64,000 nt of DNA, from positions 1 through 64,000 of IMG/VR virus record IMGVR_UViG_3300042882_000881, one strand, 5' to 3'. The DNA comes from a virus. Below are positions 33,660 through 52,659 of this stretch, piece after piece (position 1 is the first letter of the stretch; each line of letters begins with the position of its first letter). A program made the translations under genes and the position numbers. A model generated the notes under the pieces. It was not told the origin of the DNA. It did no database searches and saw only the letters and a list, made by a program, of their open reading frames with translations.

Positions 33660-33952
33660 TGAATAATAAAAATATAGAATATATACTAAGAAAAAAAATT
33701 GAAACAACAATGATTGGAGCATTAGCTAGATTTGAAGAAGGATTCGGAGATCTCTGGGGATATAATACAGATAATCCAAGTCAAGAGCAAATAAGAAATA
33801 AAATGATATGGGAAAGAATACGCAATGAAATATTAGATCATGGTAATAATCAATTGCGTAAAGGAATGTCAGAATTACAAGGAAACAAAGATTTTGACAA
33901 AGTAAAGTATTCGTACTATTATAAGTTTAATAACAAGGAGAATAATCAATGA
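33659..33952 (+). CDS. Hypothetical protein
   Basis: Translationally coupled ORF. Confidence 0.65.
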   Translation: MNNKNIEYILRKKIETTMIGALARFEEGFGDLWGYNTDNPSQEQIRNKMIWERIRNEILDHGNNQLRKGMSELQGNKDFDKVKYSYYYKFNNKENNQ

Positions 33953-34800
33953 AGTCTTTAGATTTTACATACTCAGTCAATGGTGTTGATAAGAAATTTT
34001 CAGTAGTATTACCATCCTCTGATGATCAAAAAGAGGCCAATAGGGTATACAATACCGCGTTTAGTGATGCTATAAAAGCCAAGGCTTTGGTCAGAGCAAA
34101 ATTAGACGATGTTCTTGTTGAACAAGGATTATGGGATGATAAAAAGCAAAAAGATTTCAATGATCTGCAAAATTCTATTCTTGAGGGAGAGAGAAGATTA
34201 GCTAAGGGTGGTATACAACTAACAGAAGCTAAAAAGGTGGCTCTACAAATGAAAAAAGATAGAGCAGACTTAAGAGATTTAATTTCGGTCAAAACCAATC
34301 TAGATACTCATACCGCAGAAGGTCAAGCTGATAATGCTAGATTTAATTATTTAGTATCATCCTGTTTGGTGTATTCTGATACTAAAGAGACTTACTTTAA
34401 AGGATATCAGGACTATTTAAGTAGGGCTGCTGAACCTGTTTCTATATTGGCTGCTCAGCATTTGGCTTCTATGTTGTATGGCTTAGACAGCGACTATGAA
34501 GAAAAATTGCCAGAGAATAAGTTTTTGATGAAATATAAATTTGTTAATGATAAATTAAGATTAATTAATAAAGATAATCAACTAATTGATGAAGAAGGCA
34601 GGCTAGTAGATGAAACCGGAAGATTCATTAATGACAAAGGAGAATTCGTTGACAAAGAAGGAAACGTTGTTAATGAAAAAGGAGATTATCTCTTCGAATT
34701 TCAGCCATTCTTGGATGAAAGCGGAAAGCCTATTGTCGAATCTGCTCCAATTAAAGAGTCAGAACCAGAAGAACTATCCAAAGAAGAATCGCCAACTTGA
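33949..34800 (+). CDS. Probable tail assembly chaperone with 7-aa repeats
   Basis: AGGAG RBS; directly upstream of the TMP; (I/V)(D/N)xxGxx repeats. Confidence 0.55.
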   Translation: MKSLDFTYSVNGVDKKFSVVLPSSDDQKEANRVYNTAFSDAIKAKALVRAKLDDVLVEQGLWDDKKQKDFNDLQNSILEGERRLAKGGIQLTEAKKVALQMKKDRADLRDLISVKTNLDTHTAEGQADNARFNYLVSSCLVYSDTKETYFKGYQDYLSRAAEPVSILAAQHLASMLYGLDSDYEEKLPENKFLMKYKFVNDKLRLINKDNQLIDEEGRLVDETGRFINDKGEFVDKEGNVVNEKGDYLFEFQPFLDESGKPIVESAPIKESEPEELSKEESPT

Positions 34801-34823
34801 TATCAATATACTAACTTTTAATC

Positions 34824-34865
34824 AAAAGATCCCATCTTCTACATTTAGAGGGTGGGATTTTTTTT
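34824..34865 (+). terminator. Intrinsic terminator-like hairpin just before the TMP RBS
   Basis: ATCCCATCTTCTA-CATT-TAGAGGGTGGGAT followed by a T-run; GGAGA follows immediately. Confidence 0.8.
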
Positions 34866-34876
34866 GGAGATAATTA

Positions 34877-37800
34877 ATGGCCAAAACCTTTAATCTTACT
34901 GCACAAATAAACTTACAAGGTCCAGCTAATATAAAGCCTATTGTAGCACAAATTAGGCGAGAGCTAGGAACCATAAATACTGCTATTGATATTAAGTTTG
35001 ATACTAAAGCAGCCAAAGGTGTTGACAATTTATCTCAAAAAATACAAAGTTTAAATAGCATATTAATTGAAACTACTAAAAATAGTCAAATATTAGCTTC
35101 TTCATTAAATAATCTTGGAACATCTATTAAAGGATTAGGATCTATTGGTAAGGTTAATAGTTCAGTTAGTAAAACCGCACAAAGTATAACTTCCACAGCA
35201 AAAGCTGTTAAAACAGCAAGTTCAGAAATGGAAGAGTTTGGTAAACAGTCTGCTCTTGCTGTACGAAGATTTGCAGCATTTAGCGTTGTTAGTGCTGGAG
35301 TATTTTCATTAGTTAATGCTGTTAGAAATGGAACTAAGGCTTTTATTGAATTTGATAAACAGCTTATTAGATTACAACAAGTTACTGGTGGTGGTAGCGT
35401 TGGTATCAAATCATTGAGAGACGAAATTATAAACTTAGCAACCACTCTTGGTGTTAGTAGTGAGTCATTAACAGAAGTTGCTGTTACTCTTGCTCAGGCC
35501 GGTTTGAGTGCCAAGGAAACTCAACAAGCACTTGCTGCTTTAGCTAAGACAGAATTGGCTCCGTCATTCGATAATATGACAGAAACCACAGAAGGTGCTA
35601 TTGCTGCAATGAGACAGTTTTCTATAGAAACAAAAGATTTAGAAAAAGTTTTAGGCTCTATTAATGCTGTTGCAGCAGCATTCGCTGTAGAATCTAGCGA
35701 TATCATTACCGCTATTCAAAGGGCTGGTGGAGCATTTGCTGCTTCTAGCAAGGGTGTTAGTGAAGGGGCTGATGCATTAAATGAATTTATTGCTATCTTT
35801 ACTAGCGTTAGAGCAACAACTCGTGAAAGCGCAGAAACTATTGCTACTGGCTTAAGAACAATTTTTACTCGTATTCAAAGAGGAAGCACAATTGACTTCC
35901 TAAGAGAATTTAATGTTGAATTAACTGATAGCGAAGGAAAATTCGTTGGTCCATATGAAGGAGTTAAAAGATTAAGTGAAGTATTAAAAACTTTAGATCC
36001 TAGAGATTTAAGATTTTCTCAAATTGTTGAAGAGCTTGGTGGATTCCGACAAATTGGTAAGGTTATTCCTTTAATTCAACAATTCGGAGAAGCACAAAAA
36101 GCATTAGGTGTTGCTCAAAGAGGACAAGGAAGCTTAACAGATGCTCAAGTTAAAGCTCAACAATCATTAGCTAATCAAATTGCTAAGGTTAGAGAACAAT
36201 TTCTAGCATTATCATATGCTGTAGGTGAAAGTCAAACATTCAAAAGCTTATTTAAAATAGTTATTGGTTTAACTAGTGGACTAATTAAATTAGCTAGCGT
36301 TTTTAAACCATTATTACCACTGATAGCAACACTTGGTATTATTCAAGGTGGTAAAGCATTAACTAAATTCGGTAGCGGTTTTATTAGTGGTATTAAAAAA
36401 GGGGGAGGAGCAGGAGGAGTTGGTACAAATCTGGGAGAAAGTCTTAGTGGCGTTAATAGCGAAAAAACTGCCATAGCAGCAGAAAAAACAGCATCCGCAT
36501 TAACAGATAATACTAAATCAATAACAACATTAACAGCAGCTGTTGAGTCTTTAACTCAAGCTATTAACTCTAGAGGCCCAGCCACACTTAATAATGGTGG
36601 AAAAGTAATGGCTTTTGCTAGAGGTGGAAGTGTTCCTGGATCTGGTAATAGAGATACTGTTCCAGCAATGCTTATGCCAGGAGAATTCGTTATACGAAAG
36701 AAAGCTGTTGAAAAACTTGGTGCTGATAATTTACACAAGATGAATAAGTATGCTTATGGTGGCACAGTTAAAGATTTAAGCAAATATTATAAATCTATTC
36801 CCACCAAAAAGGGTTATGAAAATCTTGAGAATCAACCAATAAGAGACAATTCTATATTTAAAGAAGTTAAACCAACTGATTTAACAACAGATCAGATAGA
36901 AGAGTGGAGAGGCAGCGATATTCCAAGATGGAAAAAATTTGAATATGTATTATCTAAAAACTATAATCTAGGACCACCAGCAGCTGAACAGTTTGCTTTA
37001 TTAGATTTTCCACAATCTAGATCAGAAGCAAAATTTATGAAGAAGGGCGATACATATGATGATTATGATTCTATTAAAGGTAATAATGAAGCAACCATAG
37101 CGGCTAAAAATTTTCTTTATGAAAATAGTTTACTATCAGGAAAAGCAAATCTTAAGCCAGACCAACTGCTGACCAGAGCAATAGCCAACAAACCAGTTAC
37201 TACATACTGGGCAGATCCAACAAAATTTGCCGCACAAGGTTTGAATAAGGGTGGATTAATTCAAAAATTCCTACTTGGTGGAACAGTAGAAGAAACCTCT
37301 AAGTTAGAGAATATGACTGTTCAAGATTCTGTCATAGCATGGCTAAAAGAACTTGGAGGAATTCAAGGAGTAAAAGATATTAGTGGCGTTGCTGGTAATG
37401 ATAGATCATTAGATAGCATTTTAAGATTAAATAATATCAAATCTGGAGACAATACTAAATTAAGTAAAGCTATTGAAGCCGTAGACAGAGCATTAGCTAA
37501 TAAAACTGCTAAAAAAGCTAGAGAAGCACAATCTATTAATAAGGCACTTAAGCTTGGTATTGTTGGATTAGAACCATTAGGATTTAGTCAAGATAGAGTA
37601 TTTGATACTGGATTTGGTAAAGCTGCTTTATTACTCAGAGGATTACCTAATAGTCCTGAGTATACTGATTTAGTTGGTAAAACCAGAGCCGGCGTTGCTA
37701 AATTATCAACAGATCTTGCTACTGGATTTCAAACTGCTACTGCTTTTGGAGGAAGTCAACCAATAGCATTAGATTTTGATGAAACATTAGTTAAAGGAGC

Positions 37801-40800
37801 AGATATTTTTGGTCCAGATGGAAAACCAGATATTCCAGCATATGACGATCTTAACAGAGTTAAAGAGGCTCTTCAGAATGGACAACCAACAGAACTAGCA
37901 CAAAAATTAAAATCTATTATGGATTTTGATCCATCATTTATAGATAGAATAAGAGTATTAACAGCCAGACCACAAGAGAATGCTAATCTTTTAGCTGAAA
38001 AACTAAACTCTATCGGATTACCAATTCCAGCATCTAAAATACAAGGAACACGAGGTGGTGGATCAACAAAGGCTTCTAAACTTGGTGTTGCAGAAAAATT
38101 AATAGATGATAATTATGATAATATTTTAGCTGCAATTGCTCAAGGTAAAACAGCTAAACAATATGCTGAATTAAGAGAAATACAAGATGCTGAACAAAGA
38201 GCTGGAGGTATTGCTAATGCAGAAGGAGCAGTACTACAATTAGCCTTGTCTCAACTGGGCGCTCAAGGAGGAACTATAAAAGAAGCTGCTATAGACTTTG
38301 AAAGAGGTCTAGGTTTACAAGCCTCACAAATATTTGGTCTTCCTCCAGATATTCCAACAGAAGTTAAAAGAACTCTTAGTAGCGCTGCTATTGGGCGAGC
38401 AGAAGATGAATTTACTAGATATTTTAAAGAAAACTACGGCCCATTTCCTAAAGGATCTGATGTTTATGGTTTTAATAAAAGTACTGGCTTACCAATAAGT
38501 AAATTTGCTGACGGTGGAGAAGTTTATAGTGCAAAACAATTGGTATCATTAGCCAAGTATAGAACAGGTAACGGCCCTGGAGGTGGAACTAATAGTGAAT
38601 TTATAAATAGATATTTAGAAGATAATGACTCTTTCATGGAATATCTTAAAACTTTCCATGCTGATCCACCCAAAGCGTATGACGCTACAAAGAATGCCGC
38701 AAAAGATTTATTGGAAATGTTTAGTAGCCAAGAATCAATGAGTGGATCAAAACGTTCTGGTAAACTATATTCTACAGTTGCTGGAGGGAAACTAAAGACT
38801 CTTTTAACTCAAATTGGTAATCCATTAAATTCTAATAAAGATATTTCTGATGCTATTGGAAAAACTTTTAATTTAAATGGCTCATTATTATCAACCAGTG
38901 AATCACCAGACACTGCTAGTATGTTCCAGCCAGAAAATGGCTCTAGTGCAATGTTAAGTATTATAAGAAATAAAAATATCCCATCTATTGATGTTGATAA
39001 AACAGTATTTGATACTGCTACAGAAGACGATGTTATAAAAGCTCTATCAAAATACATGGATCCTGTTTCTGGCAAAAGTGGAGCAGATTATCTAAGTAGA
39101 AGTCGCTCAGGCACAAGGTTAGAGAGAGAATTCATTCTACCACCATCTTCAAAATTTAGAATAGATGATATTGATAGAATATATACTAAGGACCAAGAAG
39201 ATAAATTATTAGGTGGAAATATTCGTCATATAGAAGGAATGAAAGTTCAGCAGTTTAAAGATGGAGGAATGGCATTTGGTAAAGAAAATGAATTTGAAAA
39301 AATCAGACAAAAAATATTAAATCAATATCCAGATATTAATTTTAGAATTTCCAGACGAAAGAATGGTTTTGGATACAATATACTAGGCGGACTAAAACAA
39401 GAAGGTAGTAATATTGGTAATTATGCAGAATTTAAGCAAGCTGGTAATCTTTCTAAATTACAAGAAGTTGCTGATAATATGGCGTCCTCTCTGCTATATG
39501 AATATGGTCCAAATATAGATCCGTCTCTTCTCAAAAAGATGCAAAATAAAAGAAAATTTGCAAACGGAGGGTCTGCACAGGATACCGTACCAGCATTATT
39601 GACCCCTGGTGAATTTGTTATCAATAAAAAAGCTGCACAAAAAATTGGATATAGTAAATTACATCAGATGAATAAAGCTGATAAAATACAAGGATATAAT
39701 AAGGGTGGTTCTGTAGGATTAGTTCAAAAATTTGCTGATGGTGGAGACGTTAGGGAAACTCAAGATTGGGCAGATGCATTGCGAGCAATTGGAAATAGTG
39801 CTCTACCAGACTTAGATGATGCTATAGAAGATGTTGCTAAACAATTTGAAGCTCTTGGTAAATTAGATGTGTCTAAAGCTCTTAGGGAAGCTATAGATCC
39901 AAGTCTTAACAGAGATCAACAATCGCGAGCCATAGGAGGAAGTGCAAGAAATACTGCTATATATGAAAATAATTCAGTAAAAGACTCGGCAGGAAATATA
40001 ACAAATGTTAATCCTGGACTAGATGCTCTTGCTGCTAGTATAGAACGTAATATTGAAGCTCAAAAGATTTTTACAATTGAAGCAGAAAGAGCCGGTATAA
40101 GTTTGAAGGATTTTGAGTCCAAAGTTAAATCTCAAAATTTAGAAAAAGCACTATCTGGCATAAATCAAAGACAAGACTCTAGAGGTTTATTAAGAAGAGA
40201 TTTTATCAAATCTAAGCTAACTGGCCTAGACACTCCTGATAAACTATCTGATGCCAGAGACACATTAATTTCTAGCTTATCTGAACTGTTAAAACCAGAT
40301 GAAGTTGAAAAAGCTATTGATGCTATAATTAGTGGAGCAGAAGCTGGTCAAAGTTTAGAAGATGTTGCTAAAACTTCTGACGAAGTTAAGAAAGCTCTTG
40401 ATGCTTCTATAGATAGAACAGAAGCTCTTAGCAAAGCAGAACAAGATTTAATTGATAATTTTGGAGAATTAACTAATAGTGTTAGAATAACAGCAGAAGA
40501 ATTAGCGGCTTTTGAATATAAAAAATCAGGTAGAGCACAAGAAGAATTTGGGATGTTGGGTGGCTTTAATCCTAGTGGAGCATTAGCGTTTAAAAATAGT
40601 AAAACCGGAGGAGGACTATTATCAGCCGCTCAAAACTTCCAACAAACCGCTGGATTAGGCAAATTGCCATTTATAGGGAAAAATATTGGAGTATTTACTA
40701 AAGCTTTAGAAGGTCTTCCTGGTCCAATTGGTAATGCTATTAAATCTATAGGAGGATTACCAGGGGCATTGGCTGCTGTTACATCTATTATTGGTAGTGA

Positions 40801-43800
40801 AGTTATACCACAACTATTAAAAGCTACTAATATGGGAACTAGTGAAATTGGTGCTGGAGTAGGAGGAGCATTAGCTGAAGGAGGTAGCAGAGCAGTTAGC
40901 TTAGGAACAATAGGAAATCAATTAGCAGGACCAATAGGTGGACTAATAGGGTTAGTAACAGGAGCATTATCTGGTGCCATAGATGGTTTTGTTAAAGCAT
41001 TTCAAACTAAAAAATTAGAAAATAGTATAGCTCAATTAGATAAAAGTATAGAACTAGTAGATAAATCATTTGAAAATTTAGCTAAAAAAGATAATTTACA
41101 AAATATTACAGCTGCACAAAAGTCTTTAGGTGGAATTTCCAGTAGTTTTTCTGATTTGAAAACTCAATCAGAAATTAGTCCAATGGAAAGAGCTGCTTCT
41201 GGTGCTTCTACAAGTGCTCTAGTGGCTGGAGGCGCCGCTATTACAGCATTAGTTGCAGTATTAGCTGGTATTCCTACTTTTGGATTCGGAACAGCAGCAG
41301 TATTAGGAACAGCAGCAGTTGTTGGTGGTGTTGCTGGTGGAGTTTATGGCTCAACAATGAGAGCTCCATCTGAATTAGATGATGAAGCACTTCAATCATC
41401 ATTAAGAGCTGCTGAAAAATATATTGAAGGATTGAATAGACTAGCAGAAAGAGATATTAAATTAAAGAGTCTTTCCCAGTTAGAAGAAGTGACTAGTGAG
41501 ATAGATCAAATTAATAAAGATCTTGCTGGTGGTAAAATTGGATCAGCTGATGCTGAAGCATTAAAAAAGAATAAATTTATTGAACTTGGTGCAAAAAGTG
41601 CTCAAATTGAAAATGCTCAAAGAAGCGCTCTTGTTAATAGTGGAATAAATATCAGAGCAGATCAGCCATTAGCTCAACAAATAAATGGTAATGATCAGGC
41701 TATGAAAATTGCGGCGGCAGCAGCAGAACAAGCAGCATACATTGCTGGTATGGATAAGCTTAAAAGGCAATATGGTGATAATAACGCTATGCTTAGGAAA
41801 GAAAGTGCAGACAGGCAAAAGGTCATTGCTCTTGGAAATGAAGAATTAGGTATGCAATCTTATCAAATGGCATCAACAGAAAGATTGATTAGATTAACAA
41901 AAGATATGGCAAAAGAAACAGAAGCTTTAGTAGAAGCTTATAATAGAGCATTAGCTGGTATAGGTCGCTTTAAGAATGAATTAGAAAACTTTGTATTAAA
42001 AACAGAACAAAATGCTTCATTCTTTACTGGTGAAGGTGGAATGGGTCAAACTGATAGAACTCAAGAGCAAATGCTCAGAAATATGACAGCTTATACTGCT
42101 CAAGAATTAGCTCCAGTATTAGATAATGTAACATCGTTGGCAGGAGGTGGTGAACAAGGTAAAAAATTAACTGATAGTATTAAAGCTAGTAAAATTATGC
42201 AAGATATTTTACCAGGAATATTAAGAAATGCTGACGCTAGAAATGTTGGTGATGTAACAGCAAAAGTAGATCAAGCATTAGCTGGACAAGGCATAGGAAA
42301 GACTGTAAGAACAACTCTTGTGGATGAACTTAGAGAATACCTAAAAAAAGAAACTGGCAACAGAAGCGGAGATAGCTTTCAGGAAGTATTAGCCAATTTC
42401 CCTGCACTAGCAGACGCAATAAATACTGCTAAAAAAGCACAAGAAGTTGGAATAGCCATATTAGAAGCTCAAAATGATGCTCTTGATCAGGTTAATAAAC
42501 AACTAGATCAATATAACAAATATTTAAAACAATCATTACAATGGAGCATCAAGGCTGATCAGATACGTTTACAAGGAGCTATTGATCTTGATAGGGCTCT
42601 TGGTCGCACAGTATCACTAGATAGATTAAATGCTCCTATTGAGAACGAAATTAAAGCTTTAAGCGGCATTAATTCATCAGATCCTGTTGCTATAGCCAAT
42701 CAAATCAGAGCAGATCAAGCCAGAGCAGAAGCTATAAATGGTACTAATGGTCAGAGAGGACTAATGGATCAAGCTAAAGCAAGAGGCGAAGCTGGAAAAG
42801 ATGAAGTTGCTAAATTAGCTAAAGAACAAGCTGATCTTGCTAGAGCTTCAAGTAATGCTTACGAAGCTCTTGAAAAACTTGCTACTAGTGGAGATATTGC
42901 ATCTAATGTGTTGAGTAAAATTGAAGAAGAAAGACAATTAGGTAAAAACTTTATAGATTTTGCTAGGAAAGTATCAACACAAACTGCTGAAGAAGCTATT
43001 CGTATGAATAGATCTTTTGCGGCATTCGAACAAACAATTGCTGGTAATATGAATTTTGGTAATAGAGAAAATAGACAATTAGCTTATGAAGGAATGGATA
43101 CTCTACTTCCATTACTAAGAGGATCAACAGAAGGCAATCAAATCATAGCAAGATTTACTAAAAATATGCTTGCTAACCAAGGTGTCGATCTTAATAAGAA
43201 ATTTGGTAATACTGGAAGTACTATTGGAGAATTAATAGATGCTGGTACAACTGGTATTGATCCTGGCACACAAAAATTAATTGATCTATATACCAAAGCT
43301 AAAGATGCCCAAGAACAAGCAGCAAGAGAATTAGCTAATCTTAATGGATCAGCAGCAAATAAGTATCTTGAAAGTACAGCAACAATACTAAATAATCTTT
43401 ATAATAGTTTACCAGCAATCATAGCTAGCGCTCTATTAGATCCTCAAAAAGCGGCTAATGGTCAAGTTCAAGCTCCAGCACTACAAAATAATGCTCAATT
43501 ACCAAATGTTCCTCCTGATCCTAACAAGCCAATTCCAGTTGTTGTGCAAAATGCTCAACAAGCAGGAGGATTAGCTAATGGAGCACCAGTAGTTGGTCAA
43601 AATATTGCTGGGCCAGCCAATGCTCAAGCTTTTAATGCTATGGCCACAACAGTTCCAAAATTAGATCTAACAATGTTAAATACTATTAGAAGTATCGATA
43701 CATTAAATGTTGGAATAGTGAATCTTGGCACAACAGTTAAAGATTTAGCAGATAAATTAGCTGATTCTTCAGCAATGGTTGATGCTATGACAATTTTTGA

Positions 43801-44092
43801 TAAGTCTACCATAGTCTTTGGGTCAAAGGTTGATATTTTTGATAAAGCCACGCTATCTTTTGGATCTTATGTTGACAAATTATCTACTACCGCAGGATTA
43901 CTGAGCGATGCTAAGATTACTATGGGTGGTAATTATACTGTGGATGTTAAGGTTAGTGGAGCAGCAGCATTCCAAGCTATTGAAGAAGGCACACAAAAAC
44001 TAATAGATAAAGAAATTGGATTGGCTATGAGAAAATTAGTGAATAAGATTAAAAAAGTAACCGGCATGGATCTAGACTTAGATAGGAGATGA
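34877..44092 (+). CDS. Tape measure protein (3071 aa) with an internal cassette of enzyme-like cargo domains
   Basis: TP901-type TMP core (FDKQL..LAQAG..A..IATGLRTIFTRI), Ala/Gly-rich hydrophobic helices and coiled coils; central insert with HAD and ART motifs. Confidence 0.92.
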   Translation: MAKTFNLTAQINLQGPANIKPIVAQIRRELGTINTAIDIKFDTKAAKGVDNLSQKIQSLNSILIETTKNSQILASSLNNLGTSIKGLGSIGKVNSSVSKTAQSITSTAKAVKTASSEMEEFGKQSALAVRRFAAFSVVSAGVFSLVNAVRNGTKAFIEFDKQLIRLQQVTGGGSVGIKSLRDEIINLATTLGVSSESLTEVAVTLAQAGLSAKETQQALAALAKTELAPSFDNMTETTEGAIAAMRQFSIETKDLEKVLGSINAVAAAFAVESSDIITAIQRAGGAFAASSKGVSEGADALNEFIAIFTSVRATTRESAETIATGLRTIFTRIQRGSTIDFLREFNVELTDSEGKFVGPYEGVKRLSEVLKTLDPRDLRFSQIVEELGGFRQIGKVIPLIQQFGEAQKALGVAQRGQGSLTDAQVKAQQSLANQIAKVREQFLALSYAVGESQTFKSLFKIVIGLTSGLIKLASVFKPLLPLIATLGIIQGGKALTKFGSGFISGIKKGGGAGGVGTNLGESLSGVNSEKTAIAAEKTASALTDNTKSITTLTAAVESLTQAINSRGPATLNNGGKVMAFARGGSVPGSGNRDTVPAMLMPGEFVIRKKAVEKLGADNLHKMNKYAYGGTVKDLSKYYKSIPTKKGYENLENQPIRDNSIFKEVKPTDLTTDQIEEWRGSDIPRWKKFEYVLSKNYNLGPPAAEQFALLDFPQSRSEAKFMKKGDTYDDYDSIKGNNEATIAAKNFLYENSLLSGKANLKPDQLLTRAIANKPVTTYWADPTKFAAQGLNKGGLIQKFLLGGTVEETSKLENMTVQDSVIAWLKELGGIQGVKDISGVAGNDRSLDSILRLNNIKSGDNTKLSKAIEAVDRALANKTAKKAREAQSINKALKLGIVGLEPLGFSQDRVFDTGFGKAALLLRGLPNSPEYTDLVGKTRAGVAKLSTDLATGFQTATAFGGSQPIALDFDETLVKGADIFGPDGKPDIPAYDDLNRVKEALQNGQPTELAQKLKSIMDFDPSFIDRIRVLTARPQENANLLAEKLNSIGLPIPASKIQGTRGGGSTKASKLGVAEKLIDDNYDNILAAIAQGKTAKQYAELREIQDAEQRAGGIANAEGAVLQLALSQLGAQGGTIKEAAIDFERGLGLQASQIFGLPPDIPTEVKRTLSSAAIGRAEDEFTRYFKENYGPFPKGSDVYGFNKSTGLPISKFADGGEVYSAKQLVSLAKYRTGNGPGGGTNSEFINRYLEDNDSFMEYLKTFHADPPKAYDATKNAAKDLLEMFSSQESMSGSKRSGKLYSTVAGGKLKTLLTQIGNPLNSNKDISDAIGKTFNLNGSLLSTSESPDTASMFQPENGSSAMLSIIRNKNIPSIDVDKTVFDTATEDDVIKALSKYMDPVSGKSGADYLSRSRSGTRLEREFILPPSSKFRIDDIDRIYTKDQEDKLLGGNIRHIEGMKVQQFKDGGMAFGKENEFEKIRQKILNQYPDINFRISRRKNGFGYNILGGLKQEGSNIGNYAEFKQAGNLSKLQEVADNMASSLLYEYGPNIDPSLLKKMQNKRKFANGGSAQDTVPALLTPGEFVINKKAAQKIGYSKLHQMNKADKIQGYNKGGSVGLVQKFADGGDVRETQDWADALRAIGNSALPDLDDAIEDVAKQFEALGKLDVSKALREAIDPSLNRDQQSRAIGGSARNTAIYENNSVKDSAGNITNVNPGLDALAASIERNIEAQKIFTIEAERAGISLKDFESKVKSQNLEKALSGINQRQDSRGLLRRDFIKSKLTGLDTPDKLSDARDTLISSLSELLKPDEVEKAIDAIISGAEAGQSLEDVAKTSDEVKKALDASIDRTEALSKAEQDLIDNFGELTNSVRITAEELAAFEYKKSGRAQEEFGMLGGFNPSGALAFKNSKTGGGLLSAAQNFQQTAGLGKLPFIGKNIGVFTKALEGLPGPIGNAIKSIGGLPGALAAVTSIIGSEVIPQLLKATNMGTSEIGAGVGGALAEGGSRAVSLGTIGNQLAGPIGGLIGLVTGALSGAIDGFVKAFQTKKLENSIAQLDKSIELVDKSFENLAKKDNLQNITAAQKSLGGISSSFSDLKTQSEISPMERAASGASTSALVAGGAAITALVAVLAGIPTFGFGTAAVLGTAAVVGGVAGGVYGSTMRAPSELDDEALQSSLRAAEKYIEGLNRLAERDIKLKSLSQLEEVTSEIDQINKDLAGGKIGSADAEALKKNKFIELGAKSAQIENAQRSALVNSGINIRADQPLAQQINGNDQAMKIAAAAAEQAAYIAGMDKLKRQYGDNNAMLRKESADRQKVIALGNEELGMQSYQMASTERLIRLTKDMAKETEALVEAYNRALAGIGRFKNELENFVLKTEQNASFFTGEGGMGQTDRTQEQMLRNMTAYTAQELAPVLDNVTSLAGGGEQGKKLTDSIKASKIMQDILPGILRNADARNVGDVTAKVDQALAGQGIGKTVRTTLVDELREYLKKETGNRSGDSFQEVLANFPALADAINTAKKAQEVGIAILEAQNDALDQVNKQLDQYNKYLKQSLQWSIKADQIRLQGAIDLDRALGRTVSLDRLNAPIENEIKALSGINSSDPVAIANQIRADQARAEAINGTNGQRGLMDQAKARGEAGKDEVAKLAKEQADLARASSNAYEALEKLATSGDIASNVLSKIEEERQLGKNFIDFARKVSTQTAEEAIRMNRSFAAFEQTIAGNMNFGNRENRQLAYEGMDTLLPLLRGSTEGNQIIARFTKNMLANQGVDLNKKFGNTGSTIGELIDAGTTGIDPGTQKLIDLYTKAKDAQEQAARELANLNGSAANKYLESTATILNNLYNSLPAIIASALLDPQKAANGQVQAPALQNNAQLPNVPPDPNKPIPVVVQNAQQAGGLANGAPVVGQNIAGPANAQAFNAMATTVPKLDLTMLNTIRSIDTLNVGIVNLGTTVKDLADKLADSSAMVDAMTIFDKSTIVFGSKVDIFDKATLSFGSYVDKLSTTAGLLSDAKITMGGNYTVDVKVSGAAAFQAIEEGTQKLIDKEIGLAMRKLVNKIKKVTGMDLDLDRR
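37760..38160 (+). other. HAD-superfamily phosphatase domain inside the TMP
   Basis: IALDFDETLV (motif I), VLTARP (II), K (III) and LIDD (IV). Confidence 0.8.
38519..39250 (+). other. ADP-ribosyltransferase domain (VIP2/C3-like, R-S-E class) inside the TMP
   Basis: Y..FINRYL, KLYST, GKTF..LLSTS and EREFILPPSSKFRI. Confidence 0.75.
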
Positions 44093-45930
44093 TAATGACA
44101 GATTTAACTACTGATAATACAGCAGCCAGAATGTTCTATGTAAAAATGACAGAATCTGCTGGAGAAACAGATAATGAACTTGTTCCATCTCCCAATATTA
44201 ATTTAAGTATAGAAACTTTCTATGCTAATGAGAGCATAATAGGATATACTTATAATATCACCTTAACAGGATATGCGGCCTCAAAACAAGATAGAAATCA
44301 GGATCATGTTCCATCTATCGGCTATGTTGTTGGTAGTATTGCTAAAATACAAAACATATTTGATAATGTTGGAAATGGAGGTAAACTAATAGTTACAACA
44401 CCAGGAACTGGTGCTCCAATGATGATATTTAAAGGAGGTAAAATAAAAAGTATAAATTTTGCCCCTAGTAATAATCAATGGGTTAAATATAGTGAATATA
44501 CTATAGAATTAGAATTTAATGATGTTGAATTATTTGGATGTAATCATGAGACAGTAAAAGGATGCGGTTCAACATTATTTGATGCCGGTAGCAACTCGGA
44601 ATCAACAGGATTGCTCACTGTTCAATCTCAACTTGTTGATCATGGAGCAAATGCTCCTATTGGTTATAAAATCAAAAGCTTTAGTGATAAATTTACTATG
44701 GATTTACAAGACGAAATTTATGACTGGGCTAGAATTGATGATAGTTTAGAATTAAATAATAAAAGATATAATGTTCAGTATACTATAAATGCTGTTGGTC
44801 AACATTATTGGGATGAAACTGGAAATTTATTTCCAGCATGGAAACAAGCTAAAGCATTTTGTCAAGATAGATTAGTTAAACAAATTAATGGTTTGTATAC
44901 TAATATGGCTATGCACTATGCTGGTCCAGAAGAAGAATTTTGTGGAAGCTCTGAAGATTTAACAGAAATTCATAAAATTGAAAGTCCTAGCATACATACT
45001 ACTATTGGGGCGTACAATATATTTGATGAAAAAATTACATTCGGACCTTCAGAATCTGATGGAAGTTTTGAAATCAATTATAGTTCGATCTTAAAACGAA
45101 ATGTTAATACTTGTGTTACACACTCTGATTGTACTCATACATTAAATATAACAAGAGGTGGAACTAAAGAATTTGGTAAACCACAAGCAAGAAGCGCAAC
45201 ACTATCAGGTACAATACAAGGATTATTACGATATACCAATGAGGGTTCAATTATTTGGCCAAACGCCGAAGGATTCAGAATACCAGATAGTCCAAATTCT
45301 ATGGTATTTTTACCACCAAAGGCTGATTTTAAATATAAGTGGAAAGTGGCCAAAGAATTATTAGATAGATTTTTAAATGAATGTTCAGGAGAAATAACAT
45401 GTTCAGCATTAAAAGATATTGTGGTTAAATGTTTGGCACCAAGCTGTTTTCATATTTATCCTGGCCAAGATTCTGTTGATGAATTTAATCCAGCAGATTT
45501 ACTTCCTACTAGCTTCACTATTACACATAACTATGGTCAAGGCTCCATAGATTATTCTGTTGAATTTAGTCCAGAGTCTAGATCAAGGTGTAATGTAACT
45601 ATAAGTACCGAAGAACCAGTTCCAATTACGGCAGAGTTTACTATTCCAGGAAAAGGTATTTATTATCAACCTTTAGGAGGATGTACTCCTAAAAAATGGA
45701 CAATTAATGCTGAAGGATTAGTAGGAACTCCAATGGGATGTAATATGGGTTCTGGAGGAATATCAATTTGTAGTGATCCAATAATAGGATGTGAAGAATA
45801 TATGCCAGATGATAGTCAAGGAACTTATTTACTAATTTCTAAACAGAAAACATATAATCCAATTGATGGATCTTTTAGCTATAATGCTACATGGGTATGT
45901 ACTAATTGCGGTGGATACGGAGGCTGCTGA
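44089..45930 (+). CDS. Tail protein (distal-tail/hub-like), Cys-rich
   Basis: First gene after the TMP; beta-rich; AGGAG RBS (start may be 44095). Confidence 0.6.
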   Translation: MIMTDLTTDNTAARMFYVKMTESAGETDNELVPSPNINLSIETFYANESIIGYTYNITLTGYAASKQDRNQDHVPSIGYVVGSIAKIQNIFDNVGNGGKLIVTTPGTGAPMMIFKGGKIKSINFAPSNNQWVKYSEYTIELEFNDVELFGCNHETVKGCGSTLFDAGSNSESTGLLTVQSQLVDHGANAPIGYKIKSFSDKFTMDLQDEIYDWARIDDSLELNNKRYNVQYTINAVGQHYWDETGNLFPAWKQAKAFCQDRLVKQINGLYTNMAMHYAGPEEEFCGSSEDLTEIHKIESPSIHTTIGAYNIFDEKITFGPSESDGSFEINYSSILKRNVNTCVTHSDCTHTLNITRGGTKEFGKPQARSATLSGTIQGLLRYTNEGSIIWPNAEGFRIPDSPNSMVFLPPKADFKYKWKVAKELLDRFLNECSGEITCSALKDIVVKCLAPSCFHIYPGQDSVDEFNPADLLPTSFTITHNYGQGSIDYSVEFSPESRSRCNVTISTEEPVPITAEFTIPGKGIYYQPLGGCTPKKWTINAEGLVGTPMGCNMGSGGISICSDPIIGCEEYMPDDSQGTYLLISKQKTYNPIDGSFSYNATWVCTNCGGYGGC

Positions 45931-47609
45931 TGACAGAATGTGTTTCTTGTATAGGAGAATGTGAATTTCTAGGATGTAGTGTTCTAGGATTTAATGGAAC
46001 AATAGGATGGGGAACACAAGAAAGCTCTGTCAATATAGATTTAATAGAATATCAGTGTCCTCCTAATGAGATACAAATATTTCAAGGAACAAATCTAATC
46101 GGCTATCCAGTATATTTTCTTTGTGGAGATTTTTTCTTTGGAGGATTATTACAAAATTGGACATATACTCAAAACAGTGGTGGCAAAACATATAACGCTA
46201 GAGTAGTAGATCCTCGTCAAATTTTAGAACAATGTGTTCTTATAACAGATACTTATGCTGGTCCTCCTGTGAGAAGCCTTAATTATTTTGATGTTTATGG
46301 ATATTTTGAAGAGGACGTTTATCTAAACAAGAATTGTTCTTTATTTGGTACGGCAGAAGTTACTGAAAGAGGTATGCCATATACTAAAATAATGGAAGCT
46401 TTAAGGAATATGAATCCCACAATCTGTACTCCTGTGGGAGCCAATTTGGTTATTGATTGGTCAACATTTGATATTCCAGTTCCACAATATTTTAAAATAG
46501 CTGGTCCAAGTATTACAATATTACAATTAATATCTGACATATGCGATGAAGCAGGATATGATTTTTTTGTAACATTAGAACCGGGAAATATTGTTAGAAT
46601 CTATCCTGTTTCACTAAAAAGATATGATCCCATAGAAGATAATTTATTCTTTGGATTTGATAATATTATAGATTTTAGCTATGGTAAAGAATTAAGAATA
46701 ACTAAAACAAGGAATCTATTATTTGGTGAGCAACAACACTATCTTGATGTTATTCCGGCAGAAGATAATTTTGAATTTTATTTTGGAGAACATCCGGTAA
46801 CCAAACAACCAATAACACCATATAAGCGACAATATGGTCAGTTTTGGGTCAACATTGATATTAGAAAACTAAATGTTACTTTAGTAATGCCATTGCCTGT
46901 TGATTATCTTGATATATGCGAATATGACATAAGAACAGCTATGCACAGTGCAGAATCATTCTGGTCTTGGACTGAGAATACAAATACAGTATCAGAACTT
47001 GGTAAATTCATACAATCAACATATGGTACATTATATACTGCTGATAATATGATTGCTGCTGCTGATAAAAGTGCTGTTAATGTATTAAATGCAGTATCTG
47101 ATATAGCATCAATAGCAAATAGCGATAGAGCAAAATCAAATATATTAAATTGGCCACCAATAGCAGAAGATAAACAAAAAATACACGAATGGATAGCAGA
47201 ACTTGGAAGAACATATTATGGGCGCCAATATTTAGTTAAACTCAAAGAAAAAGTATGCATAAGACCTCATCCAGAAGAATTTGGTGAAAAAATGTATACT
47301 GATACTCCAACTAATGATGGAGGTTGGGTAGAACCAGGCATACCAGTTTTAGGATTAGATGATCCAGAATTAGATATGTTTAGAACTGATGATAGTAGAG
47401 TTGGAGCTATGGCACTATTTAGTGCTAGTGGAGACTGCTCATTAAGTGGAACATATAGTGGTAATGGTGGCGGAGAATATGAATACACACTAGGCAGCGG
47501 AGCAGAAATACCAGATGGTGGTGGAACACAATGTACAGATCCTAGCGGAAATCCATGTATTGGTGACCCATATCATCCAGATTATGTCCCAGGATGTGTT
47601 TGTCAATAA
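45930..47609 (+). CDS. Baseplate hub/tail-tip protein
   Basis: FLGCSV..GWG..S, FGGLLQNW, DPRQIL and ISDICDEAGYDFFV (hub-like); TGATG overlap gives a start at 45930. Confidence 0.6.
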   Translation: MTECVSCIGECEFLGCSVLGFNGTIGWGTQESSVNIDLIEYQCPPNEIQIFQGTNLIGYPVYFLCGDFFFGGLLQNWTYTQNSGGKTYNARVVDPRQILEQCVLITDTYAGPPVRSLNYFDVYGYFEEDVYLNKNCSLFGTAEVTERGMPYTKIMEALRNMNPTICTPVGANLVIDWSTFDIPVPQYFKIAGPSITILQLISDICDEAGYDFFVTLEPGNIVRIYPVSLKRYDPIEDNLFFGFDNIIDFSYGKELRITKTRNLLFGEQQHYLDVIPAEDNFEFYFGEHPVTKQPITPYKRQYGQFWVNIDIRKLNVTLVMPLPVDYLDICEYDIRTAMHSAESFWSWTENTNTVSELGKFIQSTYGTLYTADNMIAAADKSAVNVLNAVSDIASIANSDRAKSNILNWPPIAEDKQKIHEWIAELGRTYYGRQYLVKLKEKVCIRPHPEEFGEKMYTDTPTNDGGWVEPGIPVLGLDDPELDMFRTDDSRVGAMALFSASGDCSLSGTYSGNGGGEYEYTLGSGAEIPDGGGTQCTDPSGNPCIGDPYHPDYVPGCVCQ

Positions 47610-47619
47610 GGAGTAAATT

Positions 47620-50600
47620 ATGGCATATATACAATATCCTGGCGCAAAATGTGGACAGTTAGATTTAACAAAAATACCAATTGATGACTATTTGGTCATG
47701 GGTAATTCTGCTTGGGTAAGAGCATCCGTTGAGGAAAAGGTTTATTCTGCTGGTACTGACAGAGGCAAGGTAATATTTAAATTCAATGATCCGTGCGTTG
47801 TAACATTATGTCCAAATGATTTTATTGCTGGACAGAATATTGATGCTGCTAGCGAAGCGATAGTATTTGGTCTTAATGTTGCCAACATACCAAGTAATTC
47901 AGCTACTGAATATCAATCAAACTCAAAAACAGAATATTTTCAGGTAGACGCTAGTGATATTACAGTCTCATCTAAAAGAAGAGTAGATTCTGCAAATGCT
48001 AATCAATATAGTATGTTTCCTGCTGCTATTATGCCTTGTGCAGTTGCTGTTCCATTACGATCTAATATCAGACCATATGGTCCATATGCTACTAGTAATT
48101 TTCACAATAGTTGTGGCGGCATAAATGTTGAAGTAGATAAAGATATTGCTCCGTGGGTATTTGGCTCAGTAGACCTTATGAATACTGCTGCCATGATAAG
48201 ACTATCATCTATGGAAACTGATCCATTAGTAATTGGTACAACTGGTAGCGTAACTGTGCCATGTTTACCACAGGTTAGTCTTGGATATTCCATGTTGAGT
48301 GAGGGGCCAGTTTTAAATGGTCTTAGTGTTAATTTTGGTGCAGGAGGAGCATCAACAACATATTCATATCAAACTTTTACTCCAAAGTTCGGATCATTTT
48401 CTGCTAGTACATTAGATAGAATTAAATTAATAGCAAAAAATAGAAGAGAGCAATTAAAATTAATTAGGAATCAACAAATTCTTAATAATAGAATAGCCCG
48501 ACAAAGATCAAAGGTTGATTATAGATCAAATCCAATATTTACAAAACATGACGGTATTGCCAAACAAGCCTCTCTTCACAGAGTCTTTATTGGCGAAATG
48601 ATGGATTGGTGGAAAGACGTTAATTGTTCTGACGGAGTTGGTACTTGTAGCGGTTGTAGCAGTATTGCATTATATGGTCCTTATCAACCGGTATTAAGTA
48701 TTGCTTATGGAAATAGATTAAAATCTAGTCCTAATTTTCGTTCTGGGCCAATGGTTGAAGCAAGACATAATTCTCAGAGAACTGTTGTTGGTTCAGAAAC
48801 ATTAAGTAAACAAACATTAGAATTAAGATGGGACTATGAAAATAAAGCATTCATGAGTATGGATGGCTTACTTGGCCCAATATCAGTCAGTGGAGACGGC
48901 AATCTTCCTCAATATGCAAGATATAATCCAAAATGCCATAGACAAGCCCCATTATCACCACAGCCACCATTCGGTAAATGTTCAACTGTAACAAAAATTG
49001 AATGTAATGATGGATTTAGTAACCAAGGCTCACCAGTAGAGTCGTTGTACTATAATCAAAAAATAGAACAGAAGTTTGAAAATCCTGTTCAAAATCCAAC
49101 AAGTTGCCACCACCATTTGGGCACAGTTCATGGACATATTATTGATATTTTAGGAAGAAAGAAAAGTATCTCTGATCATATGATCATGAATCTGCATAGC
49201 AATCAAGATTATGCTGAAGATTATAGATTCCTAGGATTAAGAGGACCATTAGTATTACACAGTTGGGGATATGATACTTGGGGCAAACCAATACCAAACG
49301 AAGCAGATGTTGAAGCTGATGCTATGGATGGTATATTTAAAGAAGAAAATCTAAAAGATAGATTCTTCTGTGAATGGTTATCAAAGCCAGCAACATGGCC
49401 AGTTGGTCCTATTGATTTAAGATTTGATAGAGACAGAGGAGTTTGGGTTGCTCCACCACAAGACTATAAGGTTATTGTTGTTGAATTAATTCAAAACTTG
49501 GAACCATTTGGTACAGCATTAGCTCAATTAATTAATAAAGATAATGAAGCAAATAAAGATTATGGTCCTAAGCTATGGGACTTTGAAGGTAATGAAATAC
49601 ATGCTACTTCAGACTCATCATCTGATTATGTAGTTACTGTAGAAGATAGAATTAAAGCATCTTATAAGTGTGGCACAAGATTATATGCTCATTATGATAC
49701 ATACTCTTGTAAGTATATAGTATTTGGTCAAGTTCCACCTACTGAAACAACAGATATCATCAGATTCAGATTATACGATAATGCTTGTGCTCCAACAGGT
49801 AGTGGAGTTTGTGATTGGAAAGAATATGCTGGATACAGAGATAAGTTTTTAAATAATCATACTTTTGGAGTTCGTATTAATTGCGATGGTGCTCCAATAG
49901 ATATTGATAAAAAAGTAATTGGACAAGCTGATATAGAAAATACACAAAAGAAACAGCAAGTTCTTGTTAACCTATATGATACTGCTGGTCAACATGGTCC
50001 AGCATATGCACTATATACAACATACGAAGAATGGAAAGAAAAAGCTCATACTGGTTTTGCAGCAAGAATATTTGGATCTAGTCAACCCAATATAGCTCCT
50101 AGCGGACAACAATCTTCTCACGTTTGCGGAGATTGTATTCCTGAAAGTGGATCATCAGTATCTGAATGTGAAGAACTTTGTATAACATTTACTGAAAACG
50201 AAACTCCAGAGCAGGGCAGAGACGAGGTATCTTCATGTGCTTGCACAATGGGATCCACAGAGTGTGGATGTCCAGACCCCAATTTGCCAAACTATGATAT
50301 ACTATTCTTAGAAGGATATGCTAGATTTATACATGCTACACTATTAGAAGATTTATATCCATCTGCTTGTGGAAATAAAACTACTTCTTTTAGTTCAAGC
50401 TGCCCATGTGGAACTGCTGCTGCAAATATAGATGGTGAATTATTCTACGGCAATAGTCCAAATGGTCGTAAGCCAACATTCTATACATCATCAGGACAAA
50501 CCGAATTTAGAATTTTTGATCCATTTCAAGATAGAGAATTCCATAGTCCATTTAAGGATTTAAAAGCAGGACATAGAGTTTTAGCAATTTTTAATGAAAA

Positions 50601-52659
50601 AGAGAAAAAATATTATATATATCAATCACAAACTTTAGATAAATTTATTAAGTTTGCATTAATAGAAGATAAAAAAACTGTTAATCAAATTTGTACAAAA
50701 GCAATTAGAGTTGATAAATTTAATAGACCCATTAATTCTGATGGTAAATTAATACTATCTGATAGTGAATTAGAAGCTCATAAAATTGTAGTTGTAGACC
50801 CAATAGCTGAAAAAGCCTCTTTATATCAACAGTCTCTAAATTTCTCTACTTTAGGTCCAGCTCTAGGATCGTCAAAATATATAGATCATTATAATGGAGA
50901 AACTTTATATAGCTATAATAGAGGAAGTTATAGTGGTAGCATTATTAAACCATTCACTGGCTATGCAAAATATAGAGATACTCCATGCTCAGATGATTGT
51001 GATAATTGTAGTGGACTATCTCCAAATTTACCATCTTATGATATAGTAACATTAGAAAATTTTGCTAATTTTATTGAGTTTGAAGCAGCAGAAGACATAA
51101 TAGCCTGTAATGGTAAAGGTCCATTATGTTCATATTCACCACCACATTATGCTGCTAATTTTTATCATTATTATGATGGTACAGTTCCTGTTGGTCGTAA
51201 GCATACAGAAGGATCTTATCATCATGATAGATTAGTTAATATTAATATATATGATGTTATACCAGACACTGAAGAATATAAAAAGCGTCCAAGTTATATT
51301 GTTGGTGAAATAGTAGGAAATCTCGGACAAGGCTGCAAAGGTATAGCAAAATTAGATTCGAGAAAATCTACCACTGACGAATTAATATATAATATTGTTG
51401 ATGCTCAAACACAAGCATTATTTGGTAAATTTAAAGTGCTTGATTGCACAGGGGCTGGACAATTAAATAATGAATGTGAAGCTTTTAATGACGTTCAATG
51501 TGATCCTAAGCACGTTAGACTATATTGGTTTGGCGGAGGTTTTGAATGGAGTGAAGACGATCCATTAACATGTGCTAGAAGAGGCAATGTTAAAATTATT
51601 AATAAGCATGAGTGGTGCGGCAAGTGGTATCATGAACCATCAAACCATAATGGATCAGTTATTAATACTGATTTAGATGAATATTATATTGATGATGCTT
51701 ATCCAATAGCAAATGTCAAATTTGGCACATACGATGGATGTGGTGTTCCATCAGGATGTGAAGATGCTTGTGATTATCTGGATGGTATTCATCCAACCTG
51801 TTGTCACCCAACTAGTGAAAATTGCATAGGTCCATTCTTATCTTATTCTGGTGCTCAATATGTGGCACAATGGAATGAAGATTCTGCACAATACAATATA
51901 ATAAATGCAGAAGAATCTCCAATTTTAATAGAAGGAACATTATTAAATAATATTGGATGTTGTGTCGGGAATGCTGATGTTGAAGTATATGCAGCAACCA
52001 ATAATGAGGATGGCTTAGAAGCAGAACCAATTAAAACGCTTGTACATAGTTGTGAAAATCCAAGAGGTTGGTGTGGTAATGCTGGAGATCAAATAGTAAT
52101 ACATAGAAGACAAGTTAATAACTGTTATACATATAAAGTATTGAGTATTGGTAAAGTATGTACTCCTGGAGCATCTGTTGAGAGCGGTAATTGTTTATTA
52201 GGACCAACAGAAACTCCTCATGAAATAGCCGGTTGTGATTATAGATATTTTAATGCTAGAATTGAATGTTTCCCAGGATTTGACGAGAGCATAACACAAC
52301 AACTTATGCATGGAAAAGGCTTTGGTTTGATGTGGGAAAAGATTCAATCTTACCAAACAAGAGTAATTCATGGTTGCTGGAATGGATCATCAATTAGCGT
52401 ACAAGGATTTTCTGGCTATGATGGTAAAGATAGTAATGGTAATTCTATTATTGGTCAATCTATAGGAGTAACTAATCCAAATTCTTGCTGTAATTCTGAA
52501 TGTGGAGAAGGTTCTGTATTTAGTGTTCCAGAAGGAGGAACAGCATGGGCCACAGCAACATATATGAATACTGCAAGCGGATGCTTTTGGACATTAACTA
52601 ATGCTGAATGCTGTAATTCTTGCGCCTTCTCAGGATGTGATGAATGTGAAGAATGTTAA
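47620..52659 (+). CDS. Large Cys-rich tail-tip/central fibre protein
   Basis: AGGAG RBS; YGPY, APW.FG, LRGPLVLHSWGYD and GPIDLRFD..RGVW; internal duplication. Confidence 0.6.
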   Translation: MAYIQYPGAKCGQLDLTKIPIDDYLVMGNSAWVRASVEEKVYSAGTDRGKVIFKFNDPCVVTLCPNDFIAGQNIDAASEAIVFGLNVANIPSNSATEYQSNSKTEYFQVDASDITVSSKRRVDSANANQYSMFPAAIMPCAVAVPLRSNIRPYGPYATSNFHNSCGGINVEVDKDIAPWVFGSVDLMNTAAMIRLSSMETDPLVIGTTGSVTVPCLPQVSLGYSMLSEGPVLNGLSVNFGAGGASTTYSYQTFTPKFGSFSASTLDRIKLIAKNRREQLKLIRNQQILNNRIARQRSKVDYRSNPIFTKHDGIAKQASLHRVFIGEMMDWWKDVNCSDGVGTCSGCSSIALYGPYQPVLSIAYGNRLKSSPNFRSGPMVEARHNSQRTVVGSETLSKQTLELRWDYENKAFMSMDGLLGPISVSGDGNLPQYARYNPKCHRQAPLSPQPPFGKCSTVTKIECNDGFSNQGSPVESLYYNQKIEQKFENPVQNPTSCHHHLGTVHGHIIDILGRKKSISDHMIMNLHSNQDYAEDYRFLGLRGPLVLHSWGYDTWGKPIPNEADVEADAMDGIFKEENLKDRFFCEWLSKPATWPVGPIDLRFDRDRGVWVAPPQDYKVIVVELIQNLEPFGTALAQLINKDNEANKDYGPKLWDFEGNEIHATSDSSSDYVVTVEDRIKASYKCGTRLYAHYDTYSCKYIVFGQVPPTETTDIIRFRLYDNACAPTGSGVCDWKEYAGYRDKFLNNHTFGVRINCDGAPIDIDKKVIGQADIENTQKKQQVLVNLYDTAGQHGPAYALYTTYEEWKEKAHTGFAARIFGSSQPNIAPSGQQSSHVCGDCIPESGSSVSECEELCITFTENETPEQGRDEVSSCACTMGSTECGCPDPNLPNYDILFLEGYARFIHATLLEDLYPSACGNKTTSFSSSCPCGTAAANIDGELFYGNSPNGRKPTFYTSSGQTEFRIFDPFQDREFHSPFKDLKAGHRVLAIFNEKEKKYYIYQSQTLDKFIKFALIEDKKTVNQICTKAIRVDKFNRPINSDGKLILSDSELEAHKIVVVDPIAEKASLYQQSLNFSTLGPALGSSKYIDHYNGETLYSYNRGSYSGSIIKPFTGYAKYRDTPCSDDCDNCSGLSPNLPSYDIVTLENFANFIEFEAAEDIIACNGKGPLCSYSPPHYAANFYHYYDGTVPVGRKHTEGSYHHDRLVNINIYDVIPDTEEYKKRPSYIVGEIVGNLGQGCKGIAKLDSRKSTTDELIYNIVDAQTQALFGKFKVLDCTGAGQLNNECEAFNDVQCDPKHVRLYWFGGGFEWSEDDPLTCARRGNVKIINKHEWCGKWYHEPSNHNGSVINTDLDEYYIDDAYPIANVKFGTYDGCGVPSGCEDACDYLDGIHPTCCHPTSENCIGPFLSYSGAQYVAQWNEDSAQYNIINAEESPILIEGTLLNNIGCCVGNADVEVYAATNNEDGLEAEPIKTLVHSCENPRGWCGNAGDQIVIHRRQVNNCYTYKVLSIGKVCTPGASVESGNCLLGPTETPHEIAGCDYRYFNARIECFPGFDESITQQLMHGKGFGLMWEKIQSYQTRVIHGCWNGSSISVQGFSGYDGKDSNGNSIIGQSIGVTNPNSCCNSECGEGSVFSVPEGGTAWATATYMNTASGCFWTLTNAECCNSCAFSGCDECEEC

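Follow-up and report, generated by a model that had tools for sequence, protein, structure and literature searches.

Tape measure proteins (TMPs) are known as rulers, as channel formers and, occasionally, as carriers of a wall-degrading domain. Why should one of them enclose a whole series of enzyme-like modules, each set off from the next by a short diglycine motif? The question is raised by a gene of IMG/VR virus record IMGVR_UViG_3300042882_000881, which was analyzed over positions 1 to 64,000 (hereafter the window, which covers the opening 64 kb of one 113,950-bp contig of ~33% G+C). At the diglycine joints, modules have been acquired, dropped and swapped in frame among related phages, and we consider it fairly probable that the encoded TMP is a carrier of a modular enzyme cassette, exchanged at these joints and delivered into the host at the start of infection. 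The features under discussion are as follows, in window coordinates.

34877..44092, + strand: TMP gene, 3071 aa, 0 Cys, with matches to PhageMin_Tail and to PHROG TMP families
34877..36586, + strand: N-terminal ruler core, with PhageMin_Tail, transmembrane (TM)-like segments at aa 128-150 and 457-490, and a Gly-rich stretch at aa 505-517
36587..36763, + strand: R1, first copy of the R repeat, LNNGG, FARGG .. DTVPAMLMPGEFV .. YAYGG
36764..37240, + strand: module A, aa 630-788, with an E..D..(E/D)AK plus KGNN pattern, in 16 of 94 family proteins
37241..37282, + strand: joint A/B, the doublet LNKGG-LIQK-FLLGG
37283..37726, + strand: module B1, aa 803-950, mostly helical in the model, found apart from B2 and B3 in other loci
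37727..38176, + strand: module B2, predicted HAD-superfamily phosphatase, DFDET 966-970, T1029, K1065, DD 1077-1078
38177..38500, + strand: module B3, aa 1101-1208, with conserved E1116, D1140 and PT(E/D)VKR 1160-1165
38504..38518, + strand: joint B/C, (K)FADGG, where similarity to homologue P0002 breaks off and the 87%-identical stretch shared with homologue P0003 begins
38519..39250, + strand: module C, putative ADP-ribosyltransferase (ART)-fold domain, aa 1215-1458, with Y..IN..L, LSTS 1338-1341 and ERE 1416-1418
39254..39268, + strand: joint C/D, (Q)FKDGG
39269..39556, + strand: module D, small domain, aa 1465-1560, in 15 family proteins
39557..39751, + strand: R2, second copy of the R repeat, FANGG .. 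DTVPALLTPGEFV .. YNKGG .. VQKFADGG
39752..44092, + strand: Ala-rich C-terminal portion of the ruler; TM-like glycine-zipper segments, aa 2017-2035 and 2109-2158
Motif positions, + strand: LNNGG 36587, FARGG 36614, YAYGG 36749, LNKGG 37241, FLLGG 37268
Motif positions, + strand, continued: FADGG 38504, FKDGG 39254, FANGG 39557, YNKGG 39695, FADGG 39731

The open reading frame (ORF) at 34877..44092 was assigned as a TMP because it exhibits an above-threshold Pfam match to PhageMin_Tail (PF10145) over aa 181-386 (E 3.4e-21, 76.5 bits versus a cut-off of 33.2) as well as matches to at least five PHROG tape-measure families, with E values down to 1.5e-32. Judged from these matches, its product is the predicted ruler of an uncultured, ~114-kb long-tailed phage. 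The cassette is flanked by TM-like segments on both sides (aa 128-150 and 457-490 before it, aa 2017-2158 after it), and the C-terminal ruler part is collinear with those of the homologues P0002, P0008 and P0051.

One of the key features of the protein is the concentration of diglycine motifs around its modules. The ten [FYL]xxGG motifs reported in the first-pass annotation are all found exactly where it placed them, three times as close doublets, and the inter-motif segments A to D likewise have the coordinates it assigned to them. Between aa 570 and 1625 these 10 motifs compare with 1.76 in shuffled sequences (none of 2000 shuffles reached 10), whereas the remainder of the protein shows no excess (3 versus 2.4 expected). 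What the annotation did not mention is that the entire cassette is bracketed by two copies of a ~55-aa repeat, R, located at aa 580-637 (FARGG..YAYGG) and aa 1561-1623 (FANGG..FADGG), which share 50% identity (E 7e-15) and the consensus 'FAxGG..DTVPAxLxPGEFVIxKKA..G..L..MNK..YxxGG'. The bare joints between modules resemble the end piece of this repeat, 'VQKFAxGG'. The R profile matched no Pfam family, and R1, which is modeled as a beta-hairpin plus helix at a predicted local confidence (pLDDT) of 50-74, is the sole part of the region matching known phages.

Among the homologues described below, R is present in 299 copies (2-8 per protein) and the shorter [FY]xxGG motif in 859, with the consensus GG-x-[VI]-Q-[KR]-[FY]-A-x-G-G-x-V. 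Across these 859 copies GG is 100% by definition, A accounts for 44% of residues at its position and V for 48% at +2, [VI]Q[KR] is found upstream, and the residue that follows GG differs from copy to copy (S 12%, V 11%, K 11%). Since DNA identity between the joints within the TMP gene extends over only 15-20 nt, the motif is evidently kept at the protein level, and its consensus is also preserved in proteins that share no DNA identity. In the structure models the joints form low-confidence, unstructured stretches (aa 774-813 at pLDDT <50, 1191-1204 and 1441-1458), which is weak evidence for module boundaries because module A was modeled poorly throughout.

When relatives of the protein were sought, megablast of the TMP gene against 50,697 phage records returned no match, and tblastn of the region against phage records found a ~60-aa repeat only, in Gordonia, Clavibacter, cyanophage and marine virus records. 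A HMMER search with aa 629-1563 against 1.84 billion representatives yielded 93 matches, nearly all of them proteins of 2000-7279 aa. The protein is one of a family of giant TMPs (2000-7000 aa) with hardly any cysteine. The few short matches look like fragments, such as P0044 on a 921-bp contig, which was also the only result of a word-indexed search for short relatives of modules C and D; neither search brought up a free-standing, full-length homologue of any module. Scans of viral and metagenome contigs recovered few module-bearing loci.

Among these homologues module content is variable, as an alignment of related TMPs had been expected to reveal if the array were exchangeable: B is present in 75 proteins, A in 16, D in 15 and C in 7 directly or ~13 after iteration. 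The ends of BLAST similarity cluster on the motifs, at aa 620-640, 780-810, 1180-1230, 1450-1470, 1540-1565 and 1610-1625, and are rare between them, with 37 high-scoring segment pair ends at aa 780-809 (joint A/B) alone. Likewise, 82% of the N-terminal module boundaries in homologues have a [FYLMIVW]xxGG motif within ~25 aa, versus 14% of random positions. Individual homologues illustrate each type of event. P0002, the closest, is collinear with our TMP except that it is without aa 1219-1447 (module C); in P0003, aa 1206-1466 are 87% identical from 'KFADGG' to 'VQQF|KDGG', compared with 57% for the N-terminal core, and the remaining sequence is rearranged; P0004 has one further module inserted at FLLGG and, together with P0037, breaks at aa 802; and in P0009 and P0011 module A is replaced between aa 631 and 790. 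The proposal that the motifs are the module boundaries and exchange junctions of a variable array is therefore borne out, both by breakpoints that fall on the motifs and by module C, which is an indel relative to P0002 yet 87% identical in the more distant P0003. A single-linkage clustering of the inter-joint segments placed all of them in one cluster and was not used.

Which activities might such a cassette carry? The alignments used for folding were shallow, and alignments A1, A4 and A6 as well as row P0063 of A7 were left out because of misplaced rows. The clearest answer comes from module B, in which a HAD domain had been proposed. The B2 model reaches pLDDT 90-98, and its Foldseek matches (AphA, phosphoserine phosphatase, the T4 Pnkp 3'-phosphatase and e(P4)) attain probability 1.00 with E values down to 3.4e-4. 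No Pfam HAD family matched B2 even at E 10, which marks it as a very divergent member of the superfamily. Despite this divergence, D966, D968 and T970 of motif I are invariant in 74 of 74 family members, as are T/S1029 (74/74) and D1078 (74/74) among motifs II-IV, while K1065 and D1077 are found in 71/74 and 73/74, respectively. This holds at 30-45% overall identity. Strict purifying selection acts on the catalytic residues of this domain, the HAD assignment stands, and B2 is apparently an active phosphatase. Its neighbor B3 is encoded ahead of the HAD domain in two other TMPs (L087:5939-7438 and L088:10163-11020) and without it in L003, L006, L009 and L014, from which it is evident that module B is itself a composite of shufflable parts.

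Module C presents a more ambiguous case. All 13 copies retain the motifs Y..IN..L, LS[TS]S and ExE-F-I-L-P, and the L, S and S of LSTS (aa 1338-1341) and both E residues of E1416-R-E1418 are invariant in a five-sequence alignment. The Pfam family ADPrib_exo_Tox (PF03496) scores 13.0 bits against module C, below its cut-off of 23.4 (E 0.067), and a module C profile finds in PDB weak matches to ARTs only, namely Tre1, Vis and Lmo0066 at E 0.1-0.6. A model built from five sequences reaches just pLDDT 55; its best Foldseek matches are SpvB, ExoS, Iota, CDTa and C3, and when this low-confidence model was compared using VIA-align, at least 42 of the 50 best among 48,161 chains were of ART fold (Z 4-6.1). 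The position expected to hold the catalytic Arg, as judged by motif order and not by superposition, reads LY[S/A/T] in all copies (LYS here), and a basic residue 6-7 positions later is common. Since Ser, Ala or Thr replaces this Arg in every copy, module C is not a canonical R-S-E enzyme. The earlier ART assignment is thus upheld as far as an ART-like domain is concerned, by motifs, weak matches and fold searches, and fails with respect to the canonical catalytic Arg. Two diverged ART modules occur in a 5839-aa TMP ORF on contig Ga0209188_1000030 (L086:6401-7093 and L086:8864-9508), and P0012 (7122 aa) also encodes two.

The remaining modules are less readily named. Modules A and B3 had been described as PD-(D/E)XK-like, for which we find the order of motif residues and little else. 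In module A this order is E689, D710 and E717-A-K719, conserved in three sequences; in B3 it is E1116 (56/74), D1140 (68/70), and E/D1162 with K1164 (68/68), except that L003 and L014 have T instead of K. PDB profile searches with A and B3 returned no match, and the B3 model consists of helices and coil with no strands (pLDDT 54-78), so that neither search nor model supports a nuclease fold. The module A model fell below pLDDT 50 because no alignment rows covered it. A search of the ESM atlas yielded no usable result for module A and no match for module D, and none of the four modules A to D had a significant match when its sequence was searched against Pfam, PHROG and PDB. The idea that A and B3 are homologous was rejected as unsupported (hhalign probability 1.5%).

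Despite the novelty of the cassette, its boundary element has counterparts in well-known phages. The R profile reaches aa 725-786 of lambda gpH (20.6-23.8 bits, E 3.5e-4 against all PDB sequences), and the translated lambda gene H contains FATGG..GEFVFTKEATSRIGVGNL..YATGG at this position, directly after a hydrophobic Gly-rich segment. This C-proximal motif is therefore common to gpH and the TMP described here, and the layout of gpH up to its own R motif resembles our N-terminal ruler core. In mycobacteriophage Douge gp16 the profile detects two copies (E 2.5e-11). The solved structures show only gpH 818-849 and Douge 1658-1699, and not R (PMC12617516, PMC13033339). During infection gpH leaves the tail and forms a trans-envelope channel; it is cut in its Gly-rich region into gpH* and gpHC, and T5 pb2 is also cut (PMC12617516). 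A further instance is gene 16 of Gordonia phage BaxterFox (L090:1129-7545). The TMP it encodes spans 2139 aa, contains no Cys and has three clear copies of R and one weak copy; its SLT transglycosylase domain (aa 1543-1633) abuts YAQGG 1630 and an R copy at 1636-1678. Because this domain sits at a joint plus R, joint-bounded cargo can be viewed as a general TMP design. From these comparisons, R appears to be an old TMP motif and the predicted cassette site lies directly after its first copy; the novelty of the present case lies in the type of cargo and in how many modules there are. While lambda gpH, at 853 aa, has a single R copy, no cargo and a cut upstream of R, our TMP has R twice (2-8 times in the family), bracketing ~930 aa of enzyme-like modules. 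In TMPs with cell-wall hydrolase domains (BaxterFox, mycobacteriophage TM4 and T5 pb2), the enzymatic domain is similarly placed in frame inside the ruler, in BaxterFox at R/[FY]AxGG joints. That hydrolase cargo acts in the wall, whereas the present array of consecutive modules includes a HAD phosphatase and a domain of ART fold, enzymes that normally act on intracellular substrates.

Based upon these features, a working model can be proposed. The modules, which would fold independently of one another and are linked by short [VI]Q[KR][FY]AxGG joints, would be carried inside the tail within the ruler, probably in an unfolded or loosely folded state. Since a TMP exits before the DNA does, the modules would be the first to reach the host, entering its envelope or cytoplasm as infection begins and before phage gene expression, where the phosphatase and the ART-like domain might act on host or defense molecules. 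The GG joints would most likely serve as flexible, recombination-tolerant hinges. The composition of the family is compatible with such a passage: the 82 giant homologues have 33 Cys among 317,390 residues, and 67 of these proteins have none, enzyme modules included, which fits a protein that stays extended or refolds after passing through tail and envelope.

Several considerations weigh against this model. The term effector-like is unproven for A, B1, B3 and D because none has a recognizable fold, while for C the model is at pLDDT 55, the ART matches are sub-threshold and the canonical Arg is replaced in every family member. As AphA and e(P4) are periplasmic, the site of action could be the envelope and not the cytoplasm. 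Furthermore, folded domains of 20-45 kDa fit poorly in the lumen of a tail tube, and unfolded storage is assumed. Lastly, the contrast between 87% and 57% identity in P0003 could partly reflect stronger constraint on the ART-like module instead of recent transfer.

The same observations can be read in other ways. The protein might be an injected polyprotein in which a phage or host protease cuts the [FY]AxGG joints, either at tail maturation or after ejection, to release A, B, C and D, which seems to us unlikely. Cleavage after GG has precedents in adenovirus, African swine fever virus (ASFV) and ubiquitin-like systems, and it also counts in favor of this reading that the joint consensus is strongly conserved in protein (859 copies) while DNA identity between copies is short. 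Known GG-specific proteases, however, use Leu, Ile or Met at P4, where the joint has Ala, and a Pfam search of ten ORFs of the virion module (head and tail) found no protease family. The variable residue after GG also speaks against it, and Ser/Thr/Cys self-cleavage in particular cannot apply to all joints for this reason. Any cutting would have to occur late, since a ruler cut before assembly could not measure length. A parallel is seen in lambda gpH, whose Gly-rich region, located immediately before the one R copy, is cut, as T5 pb2 is too (PMC12617516), yet the lambda cut is upstream of R and not at FAxGG. If the joints are cleavage sites, the same chemistry would explain why gpH is cut next to its single motif copy. 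We nonetheless doubt that the [FY]AxGG joints are true cleavage sites of an injected polyprotein that, cut late or within the host, frees a phage-specific set of enzymes (phosphatase, ART-like and other modules) into the cytoplasm ahead of the DNA.

A location outside the cytoplasm is the essence of another explanation, in which the modules function solely in the envelope or periplasm to open the way for DNA and are not takeover or anti-defense effectors. The known cargo of TMPs is indeed peptidoglycan hydrolase, in BaxterFox at a joint of this type; two periplasmic acid phosphatases, AphA and e(P4), are among the best structural matches of the HAD domain; and the cassette is located between two sets of TM-like segments. 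However, an ART needs NAD+, which is cytoplasmic, Pfam finds no peptidoglycan hydrolase family in this TMP, and B2 also matches the phosphatase of T4 Pnkp, known as a repair enzyme of the cytoplasm; these points lead us to regard an envelope-penetration function as rather improbable. It is less probable by far that the modules are mere spacers, i.e. decayed captured genes that add length to the ruler, with the GG motifs as scars of recombination. A, B1 and D match nothing known and the ART-like domain is without its canonical Arg, as decay would predict, whereas decay is hard to reconcile with HAD catalytic residues invariant in 74/74 proteins at 30-45% identity, with STS and ExE kept in all ART copies, or with a joint consensus kept in proteins without shared DNA identity. 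The exchangeable, delivered cassette is the reading we favor.

When placed among known systems, the nearest concepts are TMPs with wall hydrolases, polyvalent proteins, T4 Alt and the TMP-related effectors of contractile injection systems (PMC13277306). Polyvalent proteins combine many unrelated enzymatic domains, including ARTs, in one mosaic, virion-associated polypeptide for which delivery with DNA, and possibly processing, has been proposed (PMC5512222). Our TMP shares this trait, with HAD, ART-like and other modules in one protein whose content varies among the 93 homologues. The carriers in polyvalent systems are head-internal (MuF, N4 vRNAP-like) or conjugation proteins, often with a metallopeptidase, and the paper describing them mentions tape measure proteins 0 times (PMC5512222); neither Pfam nor PHROG matched a MuF, metallopeptidase or similar anchor or processing domain in our TMP. 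T4 Alt resembles module C in being an ART of the R-S-E type within the particle, where it is presumed to act at once on entry. Whereas module C belongs to the tail ruler, Alt is a protein of its own that is packaged in the head and cut by the prohead protease, and module C differs further in being without the canonical Arg and in having no significant sequence similarity to any ART. Sle1-type effectors of actinobacterial contractile injection systems, compared here by their description, likewise pair a TMP-related carrier, loaded into the tube and ejected, with a functional domain that can be exchanged (PMC13277306). Their particle is contractile and not a phage, there is one C-terminal functional domain, and no array of R or GG joints has been described (PMC13277306). 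Among the papers searched, none describes TMPs with ART or HAD cargo.

Should the proposed model be correct, the implications would extend beyond this phage. The family suggests that the ruler may be a general and rapidly reshuffled carrier of enzymes of the host-takeover or counter-defense type. As the short joint marks the sites of in-frame cargo exchange, it offers a testable guide to cargo in further phages and a natural position at which proteins to be delivered by engineered phages could be inserted, while the near-total absence of Cys, enzyme modules included, would be a simple sequence signature of proteins that pass through the tail. The link to a motif beside the gpH cut site brings the old questions of the mechanism and purpose of TMP cutting within reach of a model phage, and BaxterFox, being cultured, is a possible tractable system for studying the cutting of joints.

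Some additional observations concern the ruler and its surroundings. The glycine-zipper-like hydrophobic segments downstream of the cassette (window 40925-41350, aa 2017-2158) are a candidate membrane-inserting part of the ruler. Tail-fiber-like ORFs are encoded upstream of the TMP gene and large ORFs downstream at 44089-52659, an arrangement that fits a TMP gene, although the adjacent ORFs are without a family match. Two overlapping ORFs in different frames, 33949-34800 and 34610-34873, are located directly upstream of the TMP gene, which is the usual place of the tail-chaperone frameshift pair. The virion-module genes near the Cys-free TMP are themselves unusually Cys-rich, with 2.9-13.7% Cys downstream (window 44089-53418) and ~4.8% Cys in the ORFs at 10716-12062 and 14269-15627, on either side of 12111-14279; none of these genes has a Pfam match. 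Around the large terminase gene (7861-9891), the window also encodes two glycosyltransferase-like ORFs and an ERCC4-type nuclease ORF (4951-5586, 7410-7886 and 9888-10682).

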